DNA from: a virus
Taxonomy: Duplodnaviria > Heunggongvirae > Uroviricota > Caudoviricetes
Direction: 5' to 3' (one strand)
IMG/VR virus record: IMGVR_UViG_2660238346_000006
Location: 1-8,003 of that record
DNA length: 8,003 bases
Translations under genes and position numbers: made by a program
Shown: piece after piece, positions 1 to 8,003 of the stretch
Layout: each line of letters opens with the position of its first letter
Position numbering within the stretch: position 1 is the stretch's first letter
The notes under the pieces: model-generated
Seen by the model: the letters and a program-made list of their open reading frames with translations, nothing else
What the model was told of the DNA's origin: nothing
Databases searched by the model: none

Positions 1-67
1 CGCTTTACGTGCGACATATTCCCGTCCATGAACCCTTCACCACACCCCAAAGTTCACTTTGGTTATT

Positions 68-82
68 GCGCTTTGTCAGCGC
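68..82 (-). promoter_or_regulatory. Putative nutL boxB hairpin (P22-type, GACAA loop) on the leftward transcript
   Basis: Plus strand reads GCGCTTTGTCAGCGC, so the minus strand reads GCGCTGACAAAGCGC: a 5-bp GC stem with a GACAA loop, matching the P22-type boxB as I recall it. It lies left of the OL-like operators, where a pL transcript would carry nutL. Confidence 0.5.
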
Positions 83-149
83 CGTAGATTCATATTCGAA
101 TCGTTGTATATTCACCGCCCTGGTGAGTAGTGCGTCCTGCTGATGGGTG

Positions 150-270
150 AACTTTATCGGAATGATAAATTAATGGCAATAGCAAAATGATAAATTCTCT
201 TGGTTTTCAAATATCGTATTGATTCTTATGGTGTTTTATTTTGTTGTAGGAATTCGACAGGATAAATAAA
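150..270. promoter_or_regulatory. Putative OL/pL operator region with repeated TGATAAAT-type half-sites
   Basis: ATGATAAATT occurs at 162-171 and again at 187-196; TTTATC-N5-GATAAA inverted repeat at 154-170; GATAAAT at 261-267. The same motif family recurs in the cI/cro intergenic region (2621-2694). No sizeable ORF here. Confidence 0.45.
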
Positions 271-373
271 GAGATTTGAGGGAGATCTGGATTGCGTTGT
301 TTAGCAAGTTGTATCTATCAGTTTTTCAATAAATACAATCGATTATGTGTTTTTAGGTGGGCGAACGTGGGGC

Positions 374-399
374 AAAGAAAACCCGGCGCTGAGGCCGGG
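374..399 (-). terminator. Rho-independent terminator closing the leftward cI / toxin-antitoxin-chaperone operon
   Basis: Minus strand reads CCCGGC-CTCAGC-GCCGGG followed by TTTTCTTTG, starting about 10 nt after the stop of the SecB-like gene (409): GC-rich 6-bp stem, 6-nt loop, T-tract. Confidence 0.6.
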
Positions 400-408
400 T
401 GGGGAATT

Positions 409-813
409 TCACTTATTACTGTTCGTTTCCATGGGATTGGCCAAGAAATCAAAATAAGGCAGAGTGAACCTACCAAGGTTTGACATGAGGATAATTTGCT
501 CGGCATATGTTTTTATATAGGGATATGCCATATTGGGAGCAATGGACCTTACCTCATATGATTTTGCCATTTCATGAGAAAAATCATCTTCTGACCGGAA
601 GTCAAAGTCGTATGTGATGTCCATCTCAAGCCTGCCTTCAATAGTTACGGAGGCAAAATATCTCACTCTAAATAGCTTTGAATCCTTCACATTAGTGTAA
701 AGTTCATTATTTAGATTAACGGTTGTTTTTATGGATTTTTTTGCTGTTGAATCGCCTTCTAGCCGTGTCATAACCAAGCGTTCAACTTTTTTGCTAATGA
801 GTTCAATTTTCAT
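409..813 (-). CDS. SecB-like chaperone (third gene of the TAC-type module), 134 aa
   Basis: C-terminal segment APNMAYPYIKTYAEQIILMSNLGRFTLPYFDFLAN parallels the conserved E. coli SecB segment ([35 protein letters not shown], recalled from memory). Size is right for SecB-like chaperones. Start ATG overlaps the upstream antitoxin stop (ATGA at 810-813). Confidence 0.7.
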   Translation of the reverse strand: MKIELISKKVERLVMTRLEGDSTAKKSIKTTVNLNNELYTNVKDSKLFRVRYFASVTIEGRLEMDITYDFDFRSEDDFSHEMAKSYEVRSIAPNMAYPYIKTYAEQIILMSNLGRFTLPYFDFLANPMETNSNK

Positions 814-1466
814 GGTAATAATAAGTAATTTCCGTCAGAAGTCATTTCGTCATTCAGGTTGCTAGCCGCTGTGAAACTTGATGACAAGTTACTTATCAAA
901 GAAAAAACATTCCGTTTTTCTTTGCATTTGCCGTTACCCCTTACTGCGCTGAACAACATTTTTGAAAAGTAAGATTCTGTAGCCTTTTCAGCGAAATAAG
1001 CAGAAGGTGATGTGACGGCTGACTCACACCGAGCAATGACGCTAGTCATGGCTGTTTCTTCTTCCTCTGCGTCAACTAGGCTCCATTCAATTGCGCTCAT
1101 ATCTTGAATTAAGATATCTGCAGGAATTCCAAGTCCGTCATGTAGTCTACGGATCATTGAAAGACTTAATGGACGCTTACGATTTAAGACCTCAGATACT
1201 TTAGATGCTGAGCCAATGTATTGTTTCATATCGGCATAAGAGAGGCCTTGTTGATCCATACGGAACTTGATTGCTTCTATGGGATCTGGCTTGTCCATAG
1301 GGAACTCGCGTGACTCATAGTGCTCGATAAGCAAGCCTAGTAGTTCAAACTCATCAAAATCTTCAGTTCCAGGTTGTAAATCACTAGACGCAAGTTCAAT
1401 GAGCCTTTCCATAGCTGCAGCATGCTCTTCACTATTTTTAATGATGCGCCAGCTAGTTCGATTCAT
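810..1466 (-). CDS. higA: HigA-type antitoxin (XRE-family HTH) with ~90-aa C-terminal extension, putative chaperone-addiction region, 218 aa
   Basis: Residues ~95-130 (GSASKVSEVLNRKRPLSLSMIRRLHDGLGIPADILIQD) match the C-terminal HTH of E. coli HigA (GSKSMVSRVLSGKRKLTLEHAKKLATRFGISPALFID, recalled). The ORF then continues ~90 aa beyond where HigA normally ends. ATGA overlaps with higB upstream and the SecB-like gene downstream. Confidence 0.75.
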   Translation of the reverse strand: MNRTSWRIIKNSEEHAAAMERLIELASSDLQPGTEDFDEFELLGLLIEHYESREFPMDKPDPIEAIKFRMDQQGLSYADMKQYIGSASKVSEVLNRKRPLSLSMIRRLHDGLGIPADILIQDMSAIEWSLVDAEEEETAMTSVIARCESAVTSPSAYFAEKATESYFSKMLFSAVRGNGKCKEKRNVFSLISNLSSSFTAASNLNDEMTSDGNYLLLP

Positions 1467-1750
1467 TTAAGCCTCCACTTGTCGTACTCTGCATGAGTTC
1501 CAACTCTTTCAACTATGACCATTCCTGCCTGGTAAACAACTTGGACAACGAGCCGATAGTTATTGCCTTTTATATTAAAAATTACCCTGTTGTTAGGAAG
1601 GAAGTCGGCAGAATTAAATCTATTCCGTATGTCTTGAGTCGTTTTCCAGTTTTCTCTTATCACTTCATCATACCAAGAGTCTAAAGCCCCCTTGGCCTGA
1701 TTGTGCTTCTGGCTAAAACTGTGAAGCTTCTCTACGTTTAAGACCTTCAT
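1463..1750 (-). CDS. higB: HigB-family toxin (ribosome-dependent mRNA interferase, RelE superfamily), 95 aa
   Basis: FNIKGNNYRLVVQVVYQAGMVIVERVGTHAEYD aligns with E. coli K-12 HigB FNVGGNELRVVAMVFFESQKCYIREVMTHKEYD (recalled). Toxin-first gene order is typical of HigBA. Stop overlaps antitoxin start. Confidence 0.8.
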   Translation of the reverse strand: MKVLNVEKLHSFSQKHNQAKGALDSWYDEVIRENWKTTQDIRNRFNSADFLPNNRVIFNIKGNNYRLVVQVVYQAGMVIVERVGTHAEYDKWRLK

Positions 1751-1762
1751 AATCCGATTTTG

Positions 1763-1804
1763 TTCCCTCTTTGGGAATTATAGATTCATTTCCCATAAAG
1801 GGAA
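1763..1804. promoter_or_regulatory. Twin palindromes TTCCC-N5-GGGAA upstream of higB; candidate operator/promoter of the TAC module
   Basis: TTCCCTCTTTGGGAA at 1763-1777 and TTCCCATAAAGGGAA at 1790-1804 lie 13-54 bp upstream of the higB start, inside the 136-bp cI-higB intergenic gap. Type II antitoxins commonly autoregulate through palindromic operators. Confidence 0.45.
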
Positions 1805-1886
1805 TCTGTATTTTTATCCAGAAATGCTATGTACATCACCCAAACGTCTCTTCAGGCCACTGGTTACCAGCTATGTGACGATGAAG

Positions 1887-2591
1887 TCACGAACTTTTCA
1901 GCCACTCCCTTGCCTCGATGTCATCCAGATGGCGAGATTGCTTCAGAATACCAGCTACATACTCCACCTTTGCTACTTGATGATAAGGCAACGTTATAGG
2001 CCTGTGATCCTGGTTAATGCTTGTAAATTGGTATTCTCCATCTCTGTCATAGCCAAGAACCTTAATCATGTTGTGTCCTTCAACGGTTCTGACAAACACC
2101 TCATCACCCGGGAATACTTTGGTGTTAGGCTCAATGAGTACATATTCTCCTGATTTTATTCTGGGCCACATGCTGTCTCCTTTCACACGAAGACCAAAGG
2201 CATCTGGATCATCGCTATAAATTTTGAGCCACCCATCGCGCTCTTCGGTCATCTCGATGGCACCATCAACACCAAGAATTGCCTCACCAACCACGCGCAC
2301 TAACCCTTTTCTTACCTGACCGACAAAAGTTAAAGAATCTGAGAATGATGCAATTGGTGTTACATCATGTACCAAATCAAGCCACCCATTAGGTAACCCA
2401 AGCGCGGCTTCAAATTTTCTTGCTAGTTTATCCCCTATGTTTCGAGTGCTTTTTTCACCGGAGACTTGCGTGAGTTGAGAAGGGCTAACCCCAAGCTTAT
2501 CGGCAAAGCTTGCATTAGTGTTACCCGCGATTTTTTTATGCTCATCTAGCAAAAACGCCAGATTCGATTTGCGAATATCTTTGTTTTCCAT
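1887..2591 (-). CDS. cI: CI-like prophage repressor (N-terminal HTH, C-terminal S24/LexA-like autopeptidase), 234 aa
   Basis: HTH-like N-terminus (FADKLGVSPSQLTQVSG). C-terminal domain has the S24 catalytic-Ser motif (VKGDSMWPRIKSGEYVLIEP) and a downstream Lys (NMIKVL). Divergent from the cro-like gene across an operator-rich spacer. RBS GAGGGA upstream of ATG. Confidence 0.85.
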   Translation of the reverse strand: MENKDIRKSNLAFLLDEHKKIAGNTNASFADKLGVSPSQLTQVSGEKSTRNIGDKLARKFEAALGLPNGWLDLVHDVTPIASFSDSLTFVGQVRKGLVRVVGEAILGVDGAIEMTEERDGWLKIYSDDPDAFGLRVKGDSMWPRIKSGEYVLIEPNTKVFPGDEVFVRTVEGHNMIKVLGYDRDGEYQFTSINQDHRPITLPYHQVAKVEYVAGILKQSRHLDDIEAREWLKSS

Positions 2592-2704
2592 CTCACAATT
2601 TTCCCTCTATTTAGCAAATGGATAAATACGCAATATGATAAATTTACATTGCGGTTGATTTATCAAAATGGTAAAGTTGTTCTGTGTGATAAACGGAGGC
2701 ACTA
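2592..2704. promoter_or_regulatory. OR-type operator / divergent promoter region (PRM-like leftward, PR-like rightward)
   Basis: 113-bp spacer between divergent cI and cro-like genes containing GATAAAT (2621-2627), inverted TGATAAAT (2636-2643) and ATTTATCA (2658-2665), and TGATAAAC (2687-2694). Motif shared with the OL-like region at 154-267. Confidence 0.6.
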
Positions 2705-2938
2705 ATGAGTAATGAACTACTACGCTGGCGAAAAGAGGCTTCTAGCGAGGAATGGAAGCGACTCGCCGCATTAGCGAAAACTTCAGTTGGCTATCTTGAC
2801 CAGATTGCATATGGATTTCGAAGAGCTTCCCCTGATAAAGCGAATGCAATCGAAGAAGCTACTCGTAATTTCACGGGTTATAAACCTGTGAAAAAGGAAA
2901 ACCTAGTGTTCGTATCGCGTAGAGCATCGGCTGCATAA
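2705..2938 (+). CDS. cro: Cro-like small DNA-binding protein, 77 aa
   Basis: First rightward gene after the operator region, strong RBS (GGAGG) before ATG, small basic protein. Assignment is mainly positional; family membership not verifiable by eye. Confidence 0.6.
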   Translation: MSNELLRWRKEASSEEWKRLAALAKTSVGYLDQIAYGFRRASPDKANAIEEATRNFTGYKPVKKENLVFVSRRASAA

Positions 2939-2976
2939 GTAACACCGCTATTTTCACAATGGACATTCGTCCTACG

Positions 2977-2991
2977 TCGCTGACAAAGCGA
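2977..2991 (+). promoter_or_regulatory. Putative nutR boxB hairpin (GACAA loop), with possible boxA-like CGCTATTTT at 2946-2954
   Basis: TCGCTGACAAAGCGA: 5-bp stem with GACAA loop, near-identical to the minus-strand element at 68-82. Located between cro-like and cII, where lambdoid nutR sits. Confidence 0.5.
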
Positions 2992-3076
2992 GTCCCAATA
3001 TATCTGACCAACTAAGGCCATATGCGTTTCCACGCATACCTTTCAACTAACTATTCACTATTGGAAATATTAAGAA

Positions 3077-3442
3077 ATGACACAAACAAGTTACAGCAAA
3101 CTATCACAGCGTGACGTTGATCGCGCAGAAACAGATTTACTCATCAACCTATCAACGCTTACCCAGCGCGGTCTGGCAAAGATGATTGGCTGTCATGAAT
3201 CGAAGATAAGCAGAACGGACTGGAGACTTACCCAGCGCGGTCTGGCAAAGATGATTGGCTGTCATGAATCGAAGATAAGCAGAACGGACTGGAGATTTAT
3301 TGCTTCGGTCTTGTGTGCTTTCGGAATGGCATCAGACATCAGTCCGATTAGCAGGGCTTTTAAGTATGCGCTTGCTGAAATCACAAAGAAAAAACGCCCG
3401 GCGGCAACCGAGCGTTCTGAACAAATCCAGATGGAATTCTGA
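3077..3442 (+). CDS. cII: CII-like transcriptional activator carrying an in-frame 23-codon tandem duplication, 121 aa
   Basis: C-terminus [18 protein letters not shown] matches the lambda CII C-terminus as I recall it. Position between cro and O. Internal repeat [23 protein letters not shown] occurs twice consecutively. Confidence 0.85.
3158..3295 (+). repeat. Perfect 69-bp direct tandem duplication (2 copies) inside cII
   Basis: 3158-3226 and 3227-3295 are identical (cttacccagcgcggtctggcaaagatgattggctgtcatgaatcgaagataagcagaacggactggaga). Flanking bases differ on both sides. 69 bp = 23 codons, so the frame is preserved. Confidence 0.9.
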
Positions 3443-3474
3443 GGGAATTACTGGATCAATCCACAGGAGTAATT

Positions 3475-3621
3475 ATGACAAAACAACTCAGTCCTTACCA
3501 GGACAAAATTCACAAACACATACTACGTGATCGCTTCCTGTCCAGCTTCAAGCAGCCTGGTCGATTCCGGGCTGGGTTGGAAAAAGTGAAGCTGATGCAG
3601 AAGGAGAAAGGTCATGAGTAA
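3475..3621 (+). CDS. Small hypothetical protein (48 aa) between cII and O; below the ORF-track length cutoff
   Basis: ATG at 3475 preceded by GGAG (7-nt spacing); translates [48 protein letters not shown] with stop TAA 3619-3621, overlapping the O start. Hand-translated. Confidence 0.35.
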
Positions 3622-4519
3622 TCTTGCAACCGTAACACATTTAAGGCCTTCACAACGGCCTGTGGAGCGTCGTGTGGCAGAAGTTGAAGATGGTTATACC
3701 CGTCTTGCAAATGCCCTGTATGAAGAGCTTATCGGCGCAGATTTAACGAAAAATCAGAGCAAGGTTGCCCACGCCATATGCCGTAAAACATACGGCTACG
3801 GTAAAAAGATGGATCGCATCTCTGATAGTCAGTTAGCTCAAATTACCAGGCTGCCAAGACAGAAGGTAAACAAGGCCAAGAATGAGCTTATCGCGATGAA
3901 GGTTATCCTTCGCGAAGGCCAGCAAATCGGGCCTAACAAGAACATCGAGGAATGGCAAATCGAAGGGTGTCACTACTCTGGTGATAATGTCACTGCATTG
4001 GTGACAAAAAGTGTCACCAAAACGGTGACAGCGCTGTCACCAAAACAGGGACACACAAAAGAAACTATTACAAAAGAAAAAAGAAAAGATTATTCGTCCG
4101 AGAATTCTGGCGAATCCTCTGACCAGCCAGAAAACGATCTTTCTGTGGTTAAACCGGATGCTGCAATTCAGAGCGGCAGCAAGTGGGGAACAGCAGAAGA
4201 CCTGACCGCCGCAGAGTGGATGTTTGACATGGTGAAGACCATCGCACCATCAGCCAGAAAACCGAATTTTGCAGGGTGGGCTAACGATATCCGCCTGATG
4301 CGTGAACGTGACGGACGTAACCACCGCGATATGTGTGTGCTTTTCCGCTGGGCCTGCCAGGACAACTTCTGGTCCGGTAACGTGCTGAGTCCGGCCAAAC
4401 TCCGCGACAAGTGGACCCAGCTCGAAATCAACCGTAACAAGCAACAGGCAGGCGTGACAGCCAGCAAACCAAAACCCGACCTGACAAACACTGACTGGAT
4501 TTACGGGGTGGATTTATGA
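3614..4519 (+). CDS. O: Replication initiator protein O (lambda O family), 301 aa
   Basis: C-terminal half ([39 protein letters not shown]...[11 protein letters not shown]) matches lambda O as recalled. Contains iteron-like repeats plus an AT-rich tract mid-gene. Stop overlaps P start (ATGA). Confidence 0.9.
3968..4090. repeat. Putative replication origin: four iteron-like repeats with TGTCAC...GTGACA symmetry followed by an AT-rich tract, inside O
   Basis: Repeats begin near 3968, 3989, 4012 and 4034 (about 21-23 bp apart): TGTCACtactctgGTGATA, TGTCACtgcattgGTGACA, TGTCACCaaaacGGTGACA, TGTCACCaaaacagGGACAC. Followed by an A-rich stretch 4055-4090 (acaaaagaaactattacaaaagaaaaaagaaaag). Same architecture as ori-lambda, different iteron sequence. 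Confidence 0.6.
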
Positions 4520-5217
4520 AAAACATCGCCGCACAGATGGTTAACTTTGACCGTGAGCAGATGCGTCGGATCGCCAACAACATGCCGGAACAGTACGACG
4601 AAAAGCCGCAGGTACAACAGGTAGCGCAGATCATCAACGGTGTGTTCAGCCAGTTACTGGCAACTTTCCCGGCGAGTCTGGCTAACCGGGACCAGAACGA
4701 ACTGAATGAAATCCGCCGCCAGTGGGTTCTGGCTTTCCGGGAAAACGGGATCACCTCGATGGAACAGGTTAACGCAGGAATGCGCGTAGCCCGTCGGCAG
4801 AATCGACCATTTCTTCCATCACCCGGGCAGTTTGTTGCATGGTGCCGGGAAGAAGCATCCGTTATCGCCGAACTGCCAAACGTCAGCGAGCTGGTTGATA
4901 TGGTTTACGAGTATTGCCGGAAGCGTGGCCTGTATCCGGATGCAGAGTCTTATCCGTGGAAATCAAACGCGCACTACTGGCTGGTTACCAACCTGTACCA
5001 GAACATGCGGGCCAATGCGCTGACTGACGCGGAATTACGGCGCAAGGCTGCCGATGAACTGACCTGTATGATAGCACGAATTAACCGTGGTGAGACGATA
5101 CCTGAACCAGTAAAACAACTTCCTGTCATGGGCGGCAGACCTCTAAATCGAGCACAGGCTCTGGCGAAGATCGCAGAAATTAAAGCTAAGTTCGGACTGA
5201 AAGGAGCAAGTGTATGA
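4516..5217 (+). CDS. P: Replication protein P (DnaB helicase loader), 233 aa
   Basis: Sequence [44 protein letters not shown]... is essentially lambda P as I recall it. Translationally coupled to O and ren. Confidence 0.9.
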   Translation: MKNIAAQMVNFDREQMRRIANNMPEQYDEKPQVQQVAQIINGVFSQLLATFPASLANRDQNELNEIRRQWVLAFRENGITSMEQVNAGMRVARRQNRPFLPSPGQFVAWCREEASVIAELPNVSELVDMVYEYCRKRGLYPDAESYPWKSNAHYWLVTNLYQNMRANALTDAELRRKAADELTCMIARINRGETIPEPVKQLPVMGGRPLNRAQALAKIAEIKAKFGLKGASV

Positions 5218-7158: not shown

Positions 7159-7298
7159 TTGACGTGATGATTTATTCGGGGCTATATTCCTCACGCGCCA
7201 GCAAAATCTGGCGTCGGGATTTGCACCCCGGATATTCAACCGCGACAGACACACGCCGCGAGCGTGTTTTTTGTTGTCGTAAGCACACGCACATCTGA
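7155..7298 (+). CDS. Small hypothetical protein at the ninF position, ~47 aa
   Basis: In-frame GTG at 7155 overlaps ninE stop (GTGA) with GAGGA upstream; alternative ATG at 7167. Product [47 protein letters not shown]; family not recognised. Confidence 0.35.
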
Positions 7299-7436
7299 AT
7301 TATGGTGGGGCGTATGGGGGAGCCGAAAGGCTCGCCGGTTGGTTGATCCGGTAGTGCAAACCCTGTACGTCTCACCACCCAAAGATTTGCACCTGACGGT
7401 GGTGATAGTTAAATTCATCAACCAGAGGGCGTTGTC

Positions 7437-8003
7437 ATGGCGACTCAAATTTCCGTTGAAACTCTTTCCCCAATTGCCTACAACCAGATCCCCGTAATTA
7501 CTACAGAATTATTGGCGCAATTGTATGGCACTGAAACAGTCAATATAAAAATGAATTTTTCCCGTAACTCTGCGCGATTTGTACAGGGAAAACATTTCTT
7601 TAAGTTGGAAGGGAATGAACTACGTGAGTTCAAGCACAGACTATCTTTAAGCGAGTCTGTTAGCCGCGAGGTAACAGAAAGTTACTCTGTGAAAATCGCC
7701 CGCAATGTTCGCTCCCTCATCCTCTGGACAGAACGAGGCGCAGCCCGTCACGCAAAAATGCTCGAAACTGATCAGGCGTGGGAAGTGTTCGAAAAACTGG
7801 AAGACTGCTATTTCAGCCAGTGCGAGAAAAATACTGGCAAACAAGAGAAGAAGCTCAACGGACTTTCCGCAAAAGAAGCAAACAGCCTTGTATGGCTATG
7901 GGATTATGCTAACCGTTCACAGGCATTATTCCGCGAACTGTATCCGGCGCTAAAGCAAATTCAATCGAACTATTCTGACAGGTGCTACAACTACGGTCAT
8001 GAG
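7437..8003 (+). CDS. ORF6N-domain / Roi-like DNA-binding protein, 5-prime partial (runs off the window end)
   Basis: Hand translation from ATG 7437 (GAGGG 8 nt upstream) is open to the end: [66 protein letters not shown]... The PVIT-x-LAxLYG-x-E-x-RN-x-RF-x-G-x-FFKL pattern is typical of ORF6N-domain proteins. Absent from the ORF track, presumably because it has no stop in the window. Confidence 0.55.

Follow-up and report, generated by a model that had tools for sequence, protein, structure and literature searches.

The cII gene of a lambdoid prophage of E. coli contained a perfect tandem duplication of 69 bp which doubled, in frame, the DNA-binding region of the encoded activator. This architecture is probably the product of a single recent duplication, neutral in the lysogen and likely weakening or abolishing CII, which is carried by one small E. 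coli clonal group. The window analyzed (the whole stretch of DNA, 8,003 nt) corresponded to the entire contig CCCD01000182.1 of E. coli assembly GCA_000939215.1. Its genes were arranged in the order HigB module, cI, cro-position gene, cII, DUF2740 ORF, O, P, ren, ninB, dam, C4/isrK RNAs and ant.

The gene located at 3077..3442 (+ strand) encoded a phage-21-type CII of 121 aa (WP_044695199.1), the usual length being 98-99 aa, and its C-terminal 17 residues were those of lambda CII. The Pfam family Phage_CII (PF05269) was matched with 143.1 bits against a cut-off of 21.3, in two stretches split at the junction between the copies, the best of which aligned CII residues 51-115 with profile positions 24-91. 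Structures of lambda CII (1xwr, 1zpq and 8igr) were matched at E=1e-9, and the protein collapsed to a single copy (98 aa) matched 1xwr_A at E=9.8e-10, residues 13-98 aligning on residues 9-97. The preliminary description had called the gene cII from the DNA letters and their translations, and the Pfam score (143 bits) and the lambda CII structures (E=1e-9) agreed with this assignment. The gene was also found at the lambdoid position of cII, between the cro-position ORF and O and downstream of the divergent cI. The RefSeq record WP_044695199.1 is labelled "CII family transcriptional regulator", without mention of a doubled DNA-binding motif.

Positions 3158-3226 and 3227-3295 were 69-nt units arranged head-to-tail, with 100% identity by string comparison. 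Tandem Repeats Finder (TRF) recovered the same repeat in cII (period 69, copies 2.1, score 277), and in a repeat-family search of the window the two 69-bp units of cII formed a family at 100% identity (D1). A perfect 69-nt match within 8 kb cannot have a chance origin. Unit boundaries were exact, because the bases beyond the unit differed on either side: the base 5' of copy 1 was G and that 5' of copy 2 was A, while the base 3' of copy 2 was T and the first base of the unit C. The extension by 4 bases to 3299 proposed by TRF was a 3/4 match only (TTTA vs CTTA). The duplication created a new junction, GGAGA/CTTAC, at 3226/3227 (in longer form, GGACTGGAGA at the end of copy 1 followed by CTTACCCAGC at the start of copy 2). 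No microhomology was found at this junction (flanks G/A on the left and C/T on the right), only an offset 3-nt TTA match being present. As 69 nt correspond to 23 codons, the reading frame of cII was kept. A perfect in-frame tandem duplication of 69 bp, repeating 23 residues in cII, was what had been described at the outset, and string comparison, TRF and the repeat search reproduced every detail of it. The number of two copies is that read in draft contigs, and the copy number could be higher than two.

At the protein level, copy 1 (3158..3226, + strand) encoded residues L28-R50 of CII, covering helix 2, the turn and helix 3 of the helix-turn-helix (HTH), and a Pfam HTH_3 match was obtained at residues 27-46. 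Copy 2 (3227..3295, + strand), identical in sequence, encoded residues L51-R73, with Pfam HTH_31, Cro and HTH_Crp_2 matches at residues 47-70. The repeated 23 residues aligned with residues 24-48 of lambda CII, the HTH of which we take to be residues 26-45. The earlier placement of the duplicated residues in the DNA-binding region was thereby supported, both by this alignment and by the HTH models matching each copy. Judged by its sequence, the doubled unit is a predicted complete HTH, running from 2 residues before alpha2 to about 1 residue after alpha3, and the order of helices encoded by the gene was alpha1-(alpha2-turn-alpha3)-(alpha2-turn-alpha3)-alpha4-tail. Helix boundaries were taken from the alignment to PDB chains, from the low-confidence model of a single-copy control and from the residues given above for the lambda HTH. 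In the AlphaFold2 model of this control (low confidence), helix 2 spanned residues 30-37.

AlphaFold2 was run on the 121-aa variant with an alignment of 94 sequences, and on the 98-aa single-copy control with 93 sequences. The resulting models, with a mean pLDDT of 44.8 (variant) and 56.1 (control), were too poor to use. Foldseek searches of these low-confidence models against the PDB gave no significant match for either protein; the top match of the control was lambda CII with a non-significant E-value of about 1.7, while the variant did not retrieve any CII.

Within the CII family of the lambda/21/P22-C1 type, monomers of about 91-100 aa contain one HTH and the length from alpha1 to alpha4 is fixed, while the protein encoded here reached 121 aa and contained two identical HTH. 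An alignment of 93 CII cluster representatives (91-100 aa), spanning Escherichia, Cronobacter, Enterobacter, Klebsiella, Serratia, Yersinia and others, showed no indel over residues 1-68, and 12 of the 23 duplicated positions were invariant among these representatives. By sequence, synteny and predicted target promoter, the 121-aa allele belongs to the CII family, from which its architecture deviates in a single defining trait. We regard it as a mutant allele, a structurally altered form of a known gene.

Single-copy alleles of this gene were common, and the duplicated form was restricted to a few near-identical contigs. Among 5,426 complete E. coli genomes, 1,366 held this cII at a coverage of at least 80%, and each top match was 292-300 bp long, i.e., a single copy. 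A 70-nt probe of the junction returned no match in the same 5,426 genomes other than split, two-piece matches to single copies. The junction was likewise absent from 50,697 phage records, where single copies only were found, from GTDB species representatives (searched both as an exact and as a codon-degenerate pattern) and from JGI metagenome contigs. In IMG/VR, it was matched in one record only, which aligned to the window in the same way as the NCBI contig CDQY01000435.1. At the protein level, 191 close homologues of CII were obtained among 5.8 billion protein clusters, and none of the longer ones inspected (103-200 aa) contained an internal repeat. These longer homologues (103-200 aa) were considered as candidate duplications and rejected, their length being due to N-terminal extensions or alternative starts, frameshifts, read-throughs and fusions. 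A HMMER pass over 1.84 billion 50%-identity representatives retrieved 35 proteins, none of which had a duplicated HTH. One protein of 164 aa (P0159) aligned over both copies and was discarded as an unrelated leucine-rich-repeat-like protein. A search of open-access literature text gave no report of a naturally occurring CII in which the HTH is duplicated.

The protein minus one copy is 98 aa long and was already present in databases as NEN67111.1. The preliminary description had proposed comparing related prophages for single-copy versions, and these were found, as NEN67111.1 and in the prophage of O26:H11 str. 11368. It had also considered that the duplication might occur in many independent genomes and represent a conserved variant; this was not observed, the duplication being confined to one lineage and its junction occurring nowhere else in the collections searched. 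From these sequence comparisons, the duplication is derived, unique and limited to one near-clonal lineage.

Six contigs, belonging to at least five assemblies, encoded the exact 121-aa protein, and several of these contigs recurred in 2-3 samples. The carrier assemblies listed were GCA_000939215.1, 000941535.1, 000936105.1, 000947375.1 and 000936775.1, and the five carrier contigs listed (8003, 5684, 4774, 2564 and 2246 bp) differed in their starts and ends. All six contigs displayed exactly two copies of the unit, without heterogeneity. Overlaps with the window were 99.96-100% identical, with 0-1 SNP over 2-5 kb, and private SNPs were located at window position 4916 in one contig (L003) and at 4683 in another (L005). 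Contig L003 (CDQY01000435.1) also contained, at its positions 1-217, an IS3-family element of the IS1203 type located 386 bp upstream of window position 1. At the same upstream point, a further carrier (L004) displayed the sequence of the O26:H11 prophage without the IS, revealing an IS insertion polymorphism between near-identical prophages. Because SNPs and the IS insertion differed among them, the carriers were considered as distinct isolates of one prophage lineage, in which the duplication had been inherited.

The repeat could also have been created by assembly or finishing, through the joining of overlapping contig ends or the mis-resolution of a repeat of co-resident lambdoid prophages, the same pipeline reproducing the error in clonal isolates. 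The perfect identity of the copies would agree with such an origin, as would the nature of the carriers, which were short-read drafts with similar accession series and contigs of 2-8 kb. Contig ends fell inside prophage genes, so that further prophages of similar sequence must be assumed in these genomes, and the protein was known from NCBI-derived sources only, being absent from Logan and ENA assemblies. The similar accession series suggests one submitter and one pipeline, which leaves the independence of the carriers with respect to a systematic artefact incomplete. However, a novel junction cannot be produced from the de Bruijn graph of a single-copy sequence and must therefore occur in the reads. 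The 69-bp unit was constant despite contig breaks that differed among assemblies (i.e., different graphs, k and coverage), while the length of an overlap concatenation would vary with k. No Ns were present in the carrier contigs, including at or near the repeat, and the SNPs and the IS insertion pointed to different isolates. Absence from Logan would be expected, as contigs built with k=31 should break at a 69-bp tandem repeat. The assembly artefact, which had been put forward in the preliminary description as the alternative to a real event, was thus disfavored by the six carrier contigs, which came from at least five assemblies and showed differing ends, no Ns, private SNPs and an IS insertion, and it is considered improbable.

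The recency of the duplication was deduced from its distribution, because the only carriers differed by at most 1 SNP in 2-5 kb. The preliminary description had derived a very recent event from the zero divergence between copies; the recent age was retained on account of this narrow clonal distribution, while the identity of 69 bp was weak evidence for it. At commonly quoted E. coli substitution rates, two copies of 69 bp could go without a single difference for over ten thousand years. In E. coli, RecA-independent template switching readily causes deletions in tandem repeats of about 100 bp (PMC8378479), and for this reason a neutral duplication is unlikely to last indefinitely. The maintenance of two copies in every carrier would fit a young neutral allele, of which it is expected, and would also be compatible with selection for the duplication. 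As no microhomology was present at the junction, the event is attributed to illegitimate recombination or template switching rather than to slippage between short repeats; one such event would have duplicated exactly the HTH unit, once.

The genes and regulatory elements surrounding the duplication appeared intact. The cI-type repressor (234 aa, Peptidase_S24/LexA-like) was encoded at 1887..2591 (- strand) by an intact ORF, the establishment transcription of which would be the target of CII. The cro-position gene (2705..2938, + strand, 77 aa) was also intact; it had no Pfam match at E<=0.01 and is annotated as "hypothetical protein" in O26:H11 str. 11368. Downstream of cII, the ORF of O (Phage_rep_O) was located at 3614-4519 (+ strand), and those of P, ren, ninB and dam were intact as well. 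A predicted CII binding site, TTGCTGTAACTTGT (TTGY-N6-TTGY), was located at 3086..3099 (- strand), over nucleotides 10-23 of cII and outside the duplication; this motif had a single occurrence in the window. A predicted -10 hexamer, TAATAT, followed at 3067..3072 (- strand), its spacing of 13 nt to the CII box being that of lambda. The window thus displayed a putative PRE-like promoter consisting of a predicted CII box and -10, with the geometry known from lambda and phage 21. A strong intrinsic terminator of the oop type was found at 3391..3418 (- strand), antisense to the 3' end of cII and outside the duplication, and positions 3381-3482 were 92% identical to the cII 3' end and the cII-O intergenic (oop) region of lambda. 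The "ice" site of lambda is located downstream of the stretch equivalent to the duplication, and none of PRE, oop and "ice" overlapped the 69-bp repeat. The Rfam scan gave no match within or near cII. A terminator-like match on the + strand at 3286-3311, at the boundary between copy 2 and its flank, was weak and was set aside, the scan having returned an unremarkable total of 3 such matches vs 1.2 expected. The decay of lysogeny functions, with which the duplication had been thought consistent, found no support: the ORFs of cI, the cro-like gene, O, P, ren, ninB and dam, together with the PRE-like promoter and the oop region, were all intact.

Several other features were noticed in this neighborhood. 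In the A-run of cII (around 3386-3400, KKK codons), which is the antisense of the U-tract of the oop terminator, many homologues longer than 105 aa were frameshifted or read through at or just past KKK/KKN (e.g., P0038, P0042, P0048, P0049 and P0050). The homopolymer common to cII and the oop terminator may therefore be a hotspot at which slippage or sequencing errors recur. Between cII and O, a DUF2740 ORF of 48 aa (3475-3621, + strand) overlapped the beginning of O. No match to the N-terminal part of O (around 3486-4040) was present in the O26:H11 prophage, which was elsewhere 97-99% identical, and a mosaic joint inside the replication gene was therefore deduced. Directly downstream of cI, where lambda has rexAB, three ORFs occupied 409-1750 (- strand). 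They encoded a HigB-family toxin (1463-1750, - strand, PF09907), an HTH protein of 218 aa (810-1466, - strand) overlapping the HigB ORF and annotated in some genomes as a HigA-family antitoxin, and a protein of 134 aa without Pfam match (409-813, - strand), the ORF of which overlapped that of the 218-aa HTH protein. At the other end of the window, Rfam models of isrK (7195-7272, 76 bits) and of the C4 antisense RNA (7298-7382, 74 bits) matched upstream of an ORF at 7437-8003 (+ strand), and a c4 a1/b1 target element was found at 7182-7234, slightly below the gathering score. The O26 homologue of the gene right after the C4/isrK RNAs (7437-8003) is annotated as phage antirepressor Ant. Positions 7182-7382 and ant are thus predicted to be a P1/P7-style C4-ant antirepressor control module within a lambdoid prophage.

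Lambda CII is a tetrameric activator recognizing a direct repeat at PRE (PMC9986795), and the two DNA-binding domains of the tetramer are placed to read this direct repeat (PMC9986795, citing Datta 2005 and Jain 2005). It acts after infection only, on PRE, PI and PaQ, and is unneeded and off once lysogeny is set (PMC9986795). In the duplicated protein, one HTH copy only could pack natively on alpha1, and the other would constitute an insertion of 23 residues. This insertion would be located either in the linker between alpha3 and alpha4, lengthening the short spacer which fixes how the DNA-binding domains are arranged on the tetramer core, or in the loop between alpha1 and alpha2. The extra HTH would expose hydrophobic surface and loosen the placement of the two domains on TTGC-N6-TTGT. 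Activation of PRE would then be reduced or lost, possibly with quicker proteolysis, and the phage, if induced, would lysogenize poorly and be of a clear-plaque type. The 121-aa CII is therefore likely a hypomorph or a null, with an induced phage lysogenizing poorly. Because CII is needed only for establishing lysogeny, the mutation is considered neutral in the lysogen; judging from lambda biology, cII would be unexpressed in a repressed prophage, and the mutation would be invisible to selection and passively inherited.

Residual or even full activity of CII is possible, as the in-frame doubling of a complete unit leaves the native contacts available. The second HTH could be tolerated, as an extended linker or an extra hairpin, or could add DNA contacts, the allele being kept by selection on the phage with an activity either retained or altered in affinity, spacing tolerance or stability. 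The conserved frame and the duplication of a complete HTH unit are in line with such a functional variant, as are the intact C-terminal tail, PRE box and oop region. In T4 lysozyme, tandem repeats introduced by engineering are often accommodated by the structure, and the allele stayed uncollapsed through at least 2 SNPs and an IS insertion although tandem repeats are prone to deletion. However, a duplication would keep the frame by chance in one case out of three, a length change at this place was seen in no other CII of the collections searched, and the allele was limited to one near-clonal lineage. A resident prophage, moreover, puts no selection on cII. A functional variant is viewed as rather unlikely, and the weakened or inactive CII of a recent, neutral allele is the reading preferred here.

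The duplication might also act as a reversible off-switch, inactivating cII until the frequent, RecA-independent loss of one copy restores it, which would produce a mixed prophage population. The precise loss of one copy would give exactly the 98-aa allele of other strains, and in E. coli deletions within tandem repeats of about 100 bp are frequent and do not depend on RecA (PMC8378479). However, heterogeneity was not observed (two copies on six of the six contigs), and the event was single, in a single lineage, without recurrence in thousands of genomes. The junction also offered no microhomology to make the duplicating step frequent, which would render the switch one-way. Such switching is deemed highly improbable. 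That the double-HTH CII works with altered DNA recognition or stability, or that it is a revertible off state of cII biasing lysis and lysogeny, is, taken as one proposition, very improbable too. If a functional or reversibly switching variant were true, it would be of moderate interest for phage biologists, and a revertible off state would amount to a heritable yet reversible shift in the lysis/lysogeny bias of a prophage lineage.

For a recent, neutral and probably debilitating duplication, the importance beyond annotation is little, as gene, family, promoter and role all belong to textbook lambda biology. The duplication provides a clean natural marker of one prophage lineage or clone, and the 121-aa entry WP_044695199.1 should be regarded with caution, being unfit as a typical CII. 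The allele also represents a natural experiment on the tolerance of a small tetrameric activator to the duplication of its whole HTH.

Among known systems, the closest named relative was the CII of phage 21 (UMO75467.1, 99 aa; OL657228.1), which had the same type of N-terminal region and HTH. Its cII DNA was about 94% identical to that of the window, and the order cro, cII, O was common to both. The same 23-residue segment was present once in phage 21 CII and twice in the CII of the window. In the annotation of OL657228.1, the CII site (ttgynnnnnnttgy) is located over nucleotides 10-23 of cII, as in the window, and the annotated -10 of pRE, 5-10 nt upstream of the cII ATG, is equivalent to that predicted here. 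The two proteins differed in their C-terminal tail, which was the lambda version in the window, while phage 21 CII has its own different tail.

Lambda CII (P03042; 1XWR, 1ZS4/1ZPQ, 8IGR) belongs, as the CII of the window, to family PF05269. The last 17 residues were the same in both proteins and the alignment identity was about 42%, but lambda CII has a single HTH in 97 aa, in contrast to the two HTH in 121 aa encoded in the window. Of what bears on the family traits of tetramerization, DNA binding, PRE activation and FtsH-dependent instability, the lambda-type C-terminal tail was the feature seen in the window protein. Lambda PRE (TTGCGTTTGTTTGC, 13 nt, AAGTAT) had the same position and geometry as the predicted promoter of the window (TTGCTGTAACTTGT, 13 nt, TAATAT). 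In lambda, oop runs antisense to cII and overlaps its 3' end by 52 bases (PMC5869508), and the window has an equivalent stretch of the oop type.

The prophage of O26:H11 str. 11368 (WP_000438542.1) shared the HigB module, cI, cro and the 5' part of cII with the window, at 98.9% identity over window positions 1-3230. Its cII allele contained one copy of the 69-bp unit, and it differed from the window in the C-terminal tail and in the N-terminal part of O. NEN67111.1 (98 aa) was the CII of the window less one copy.
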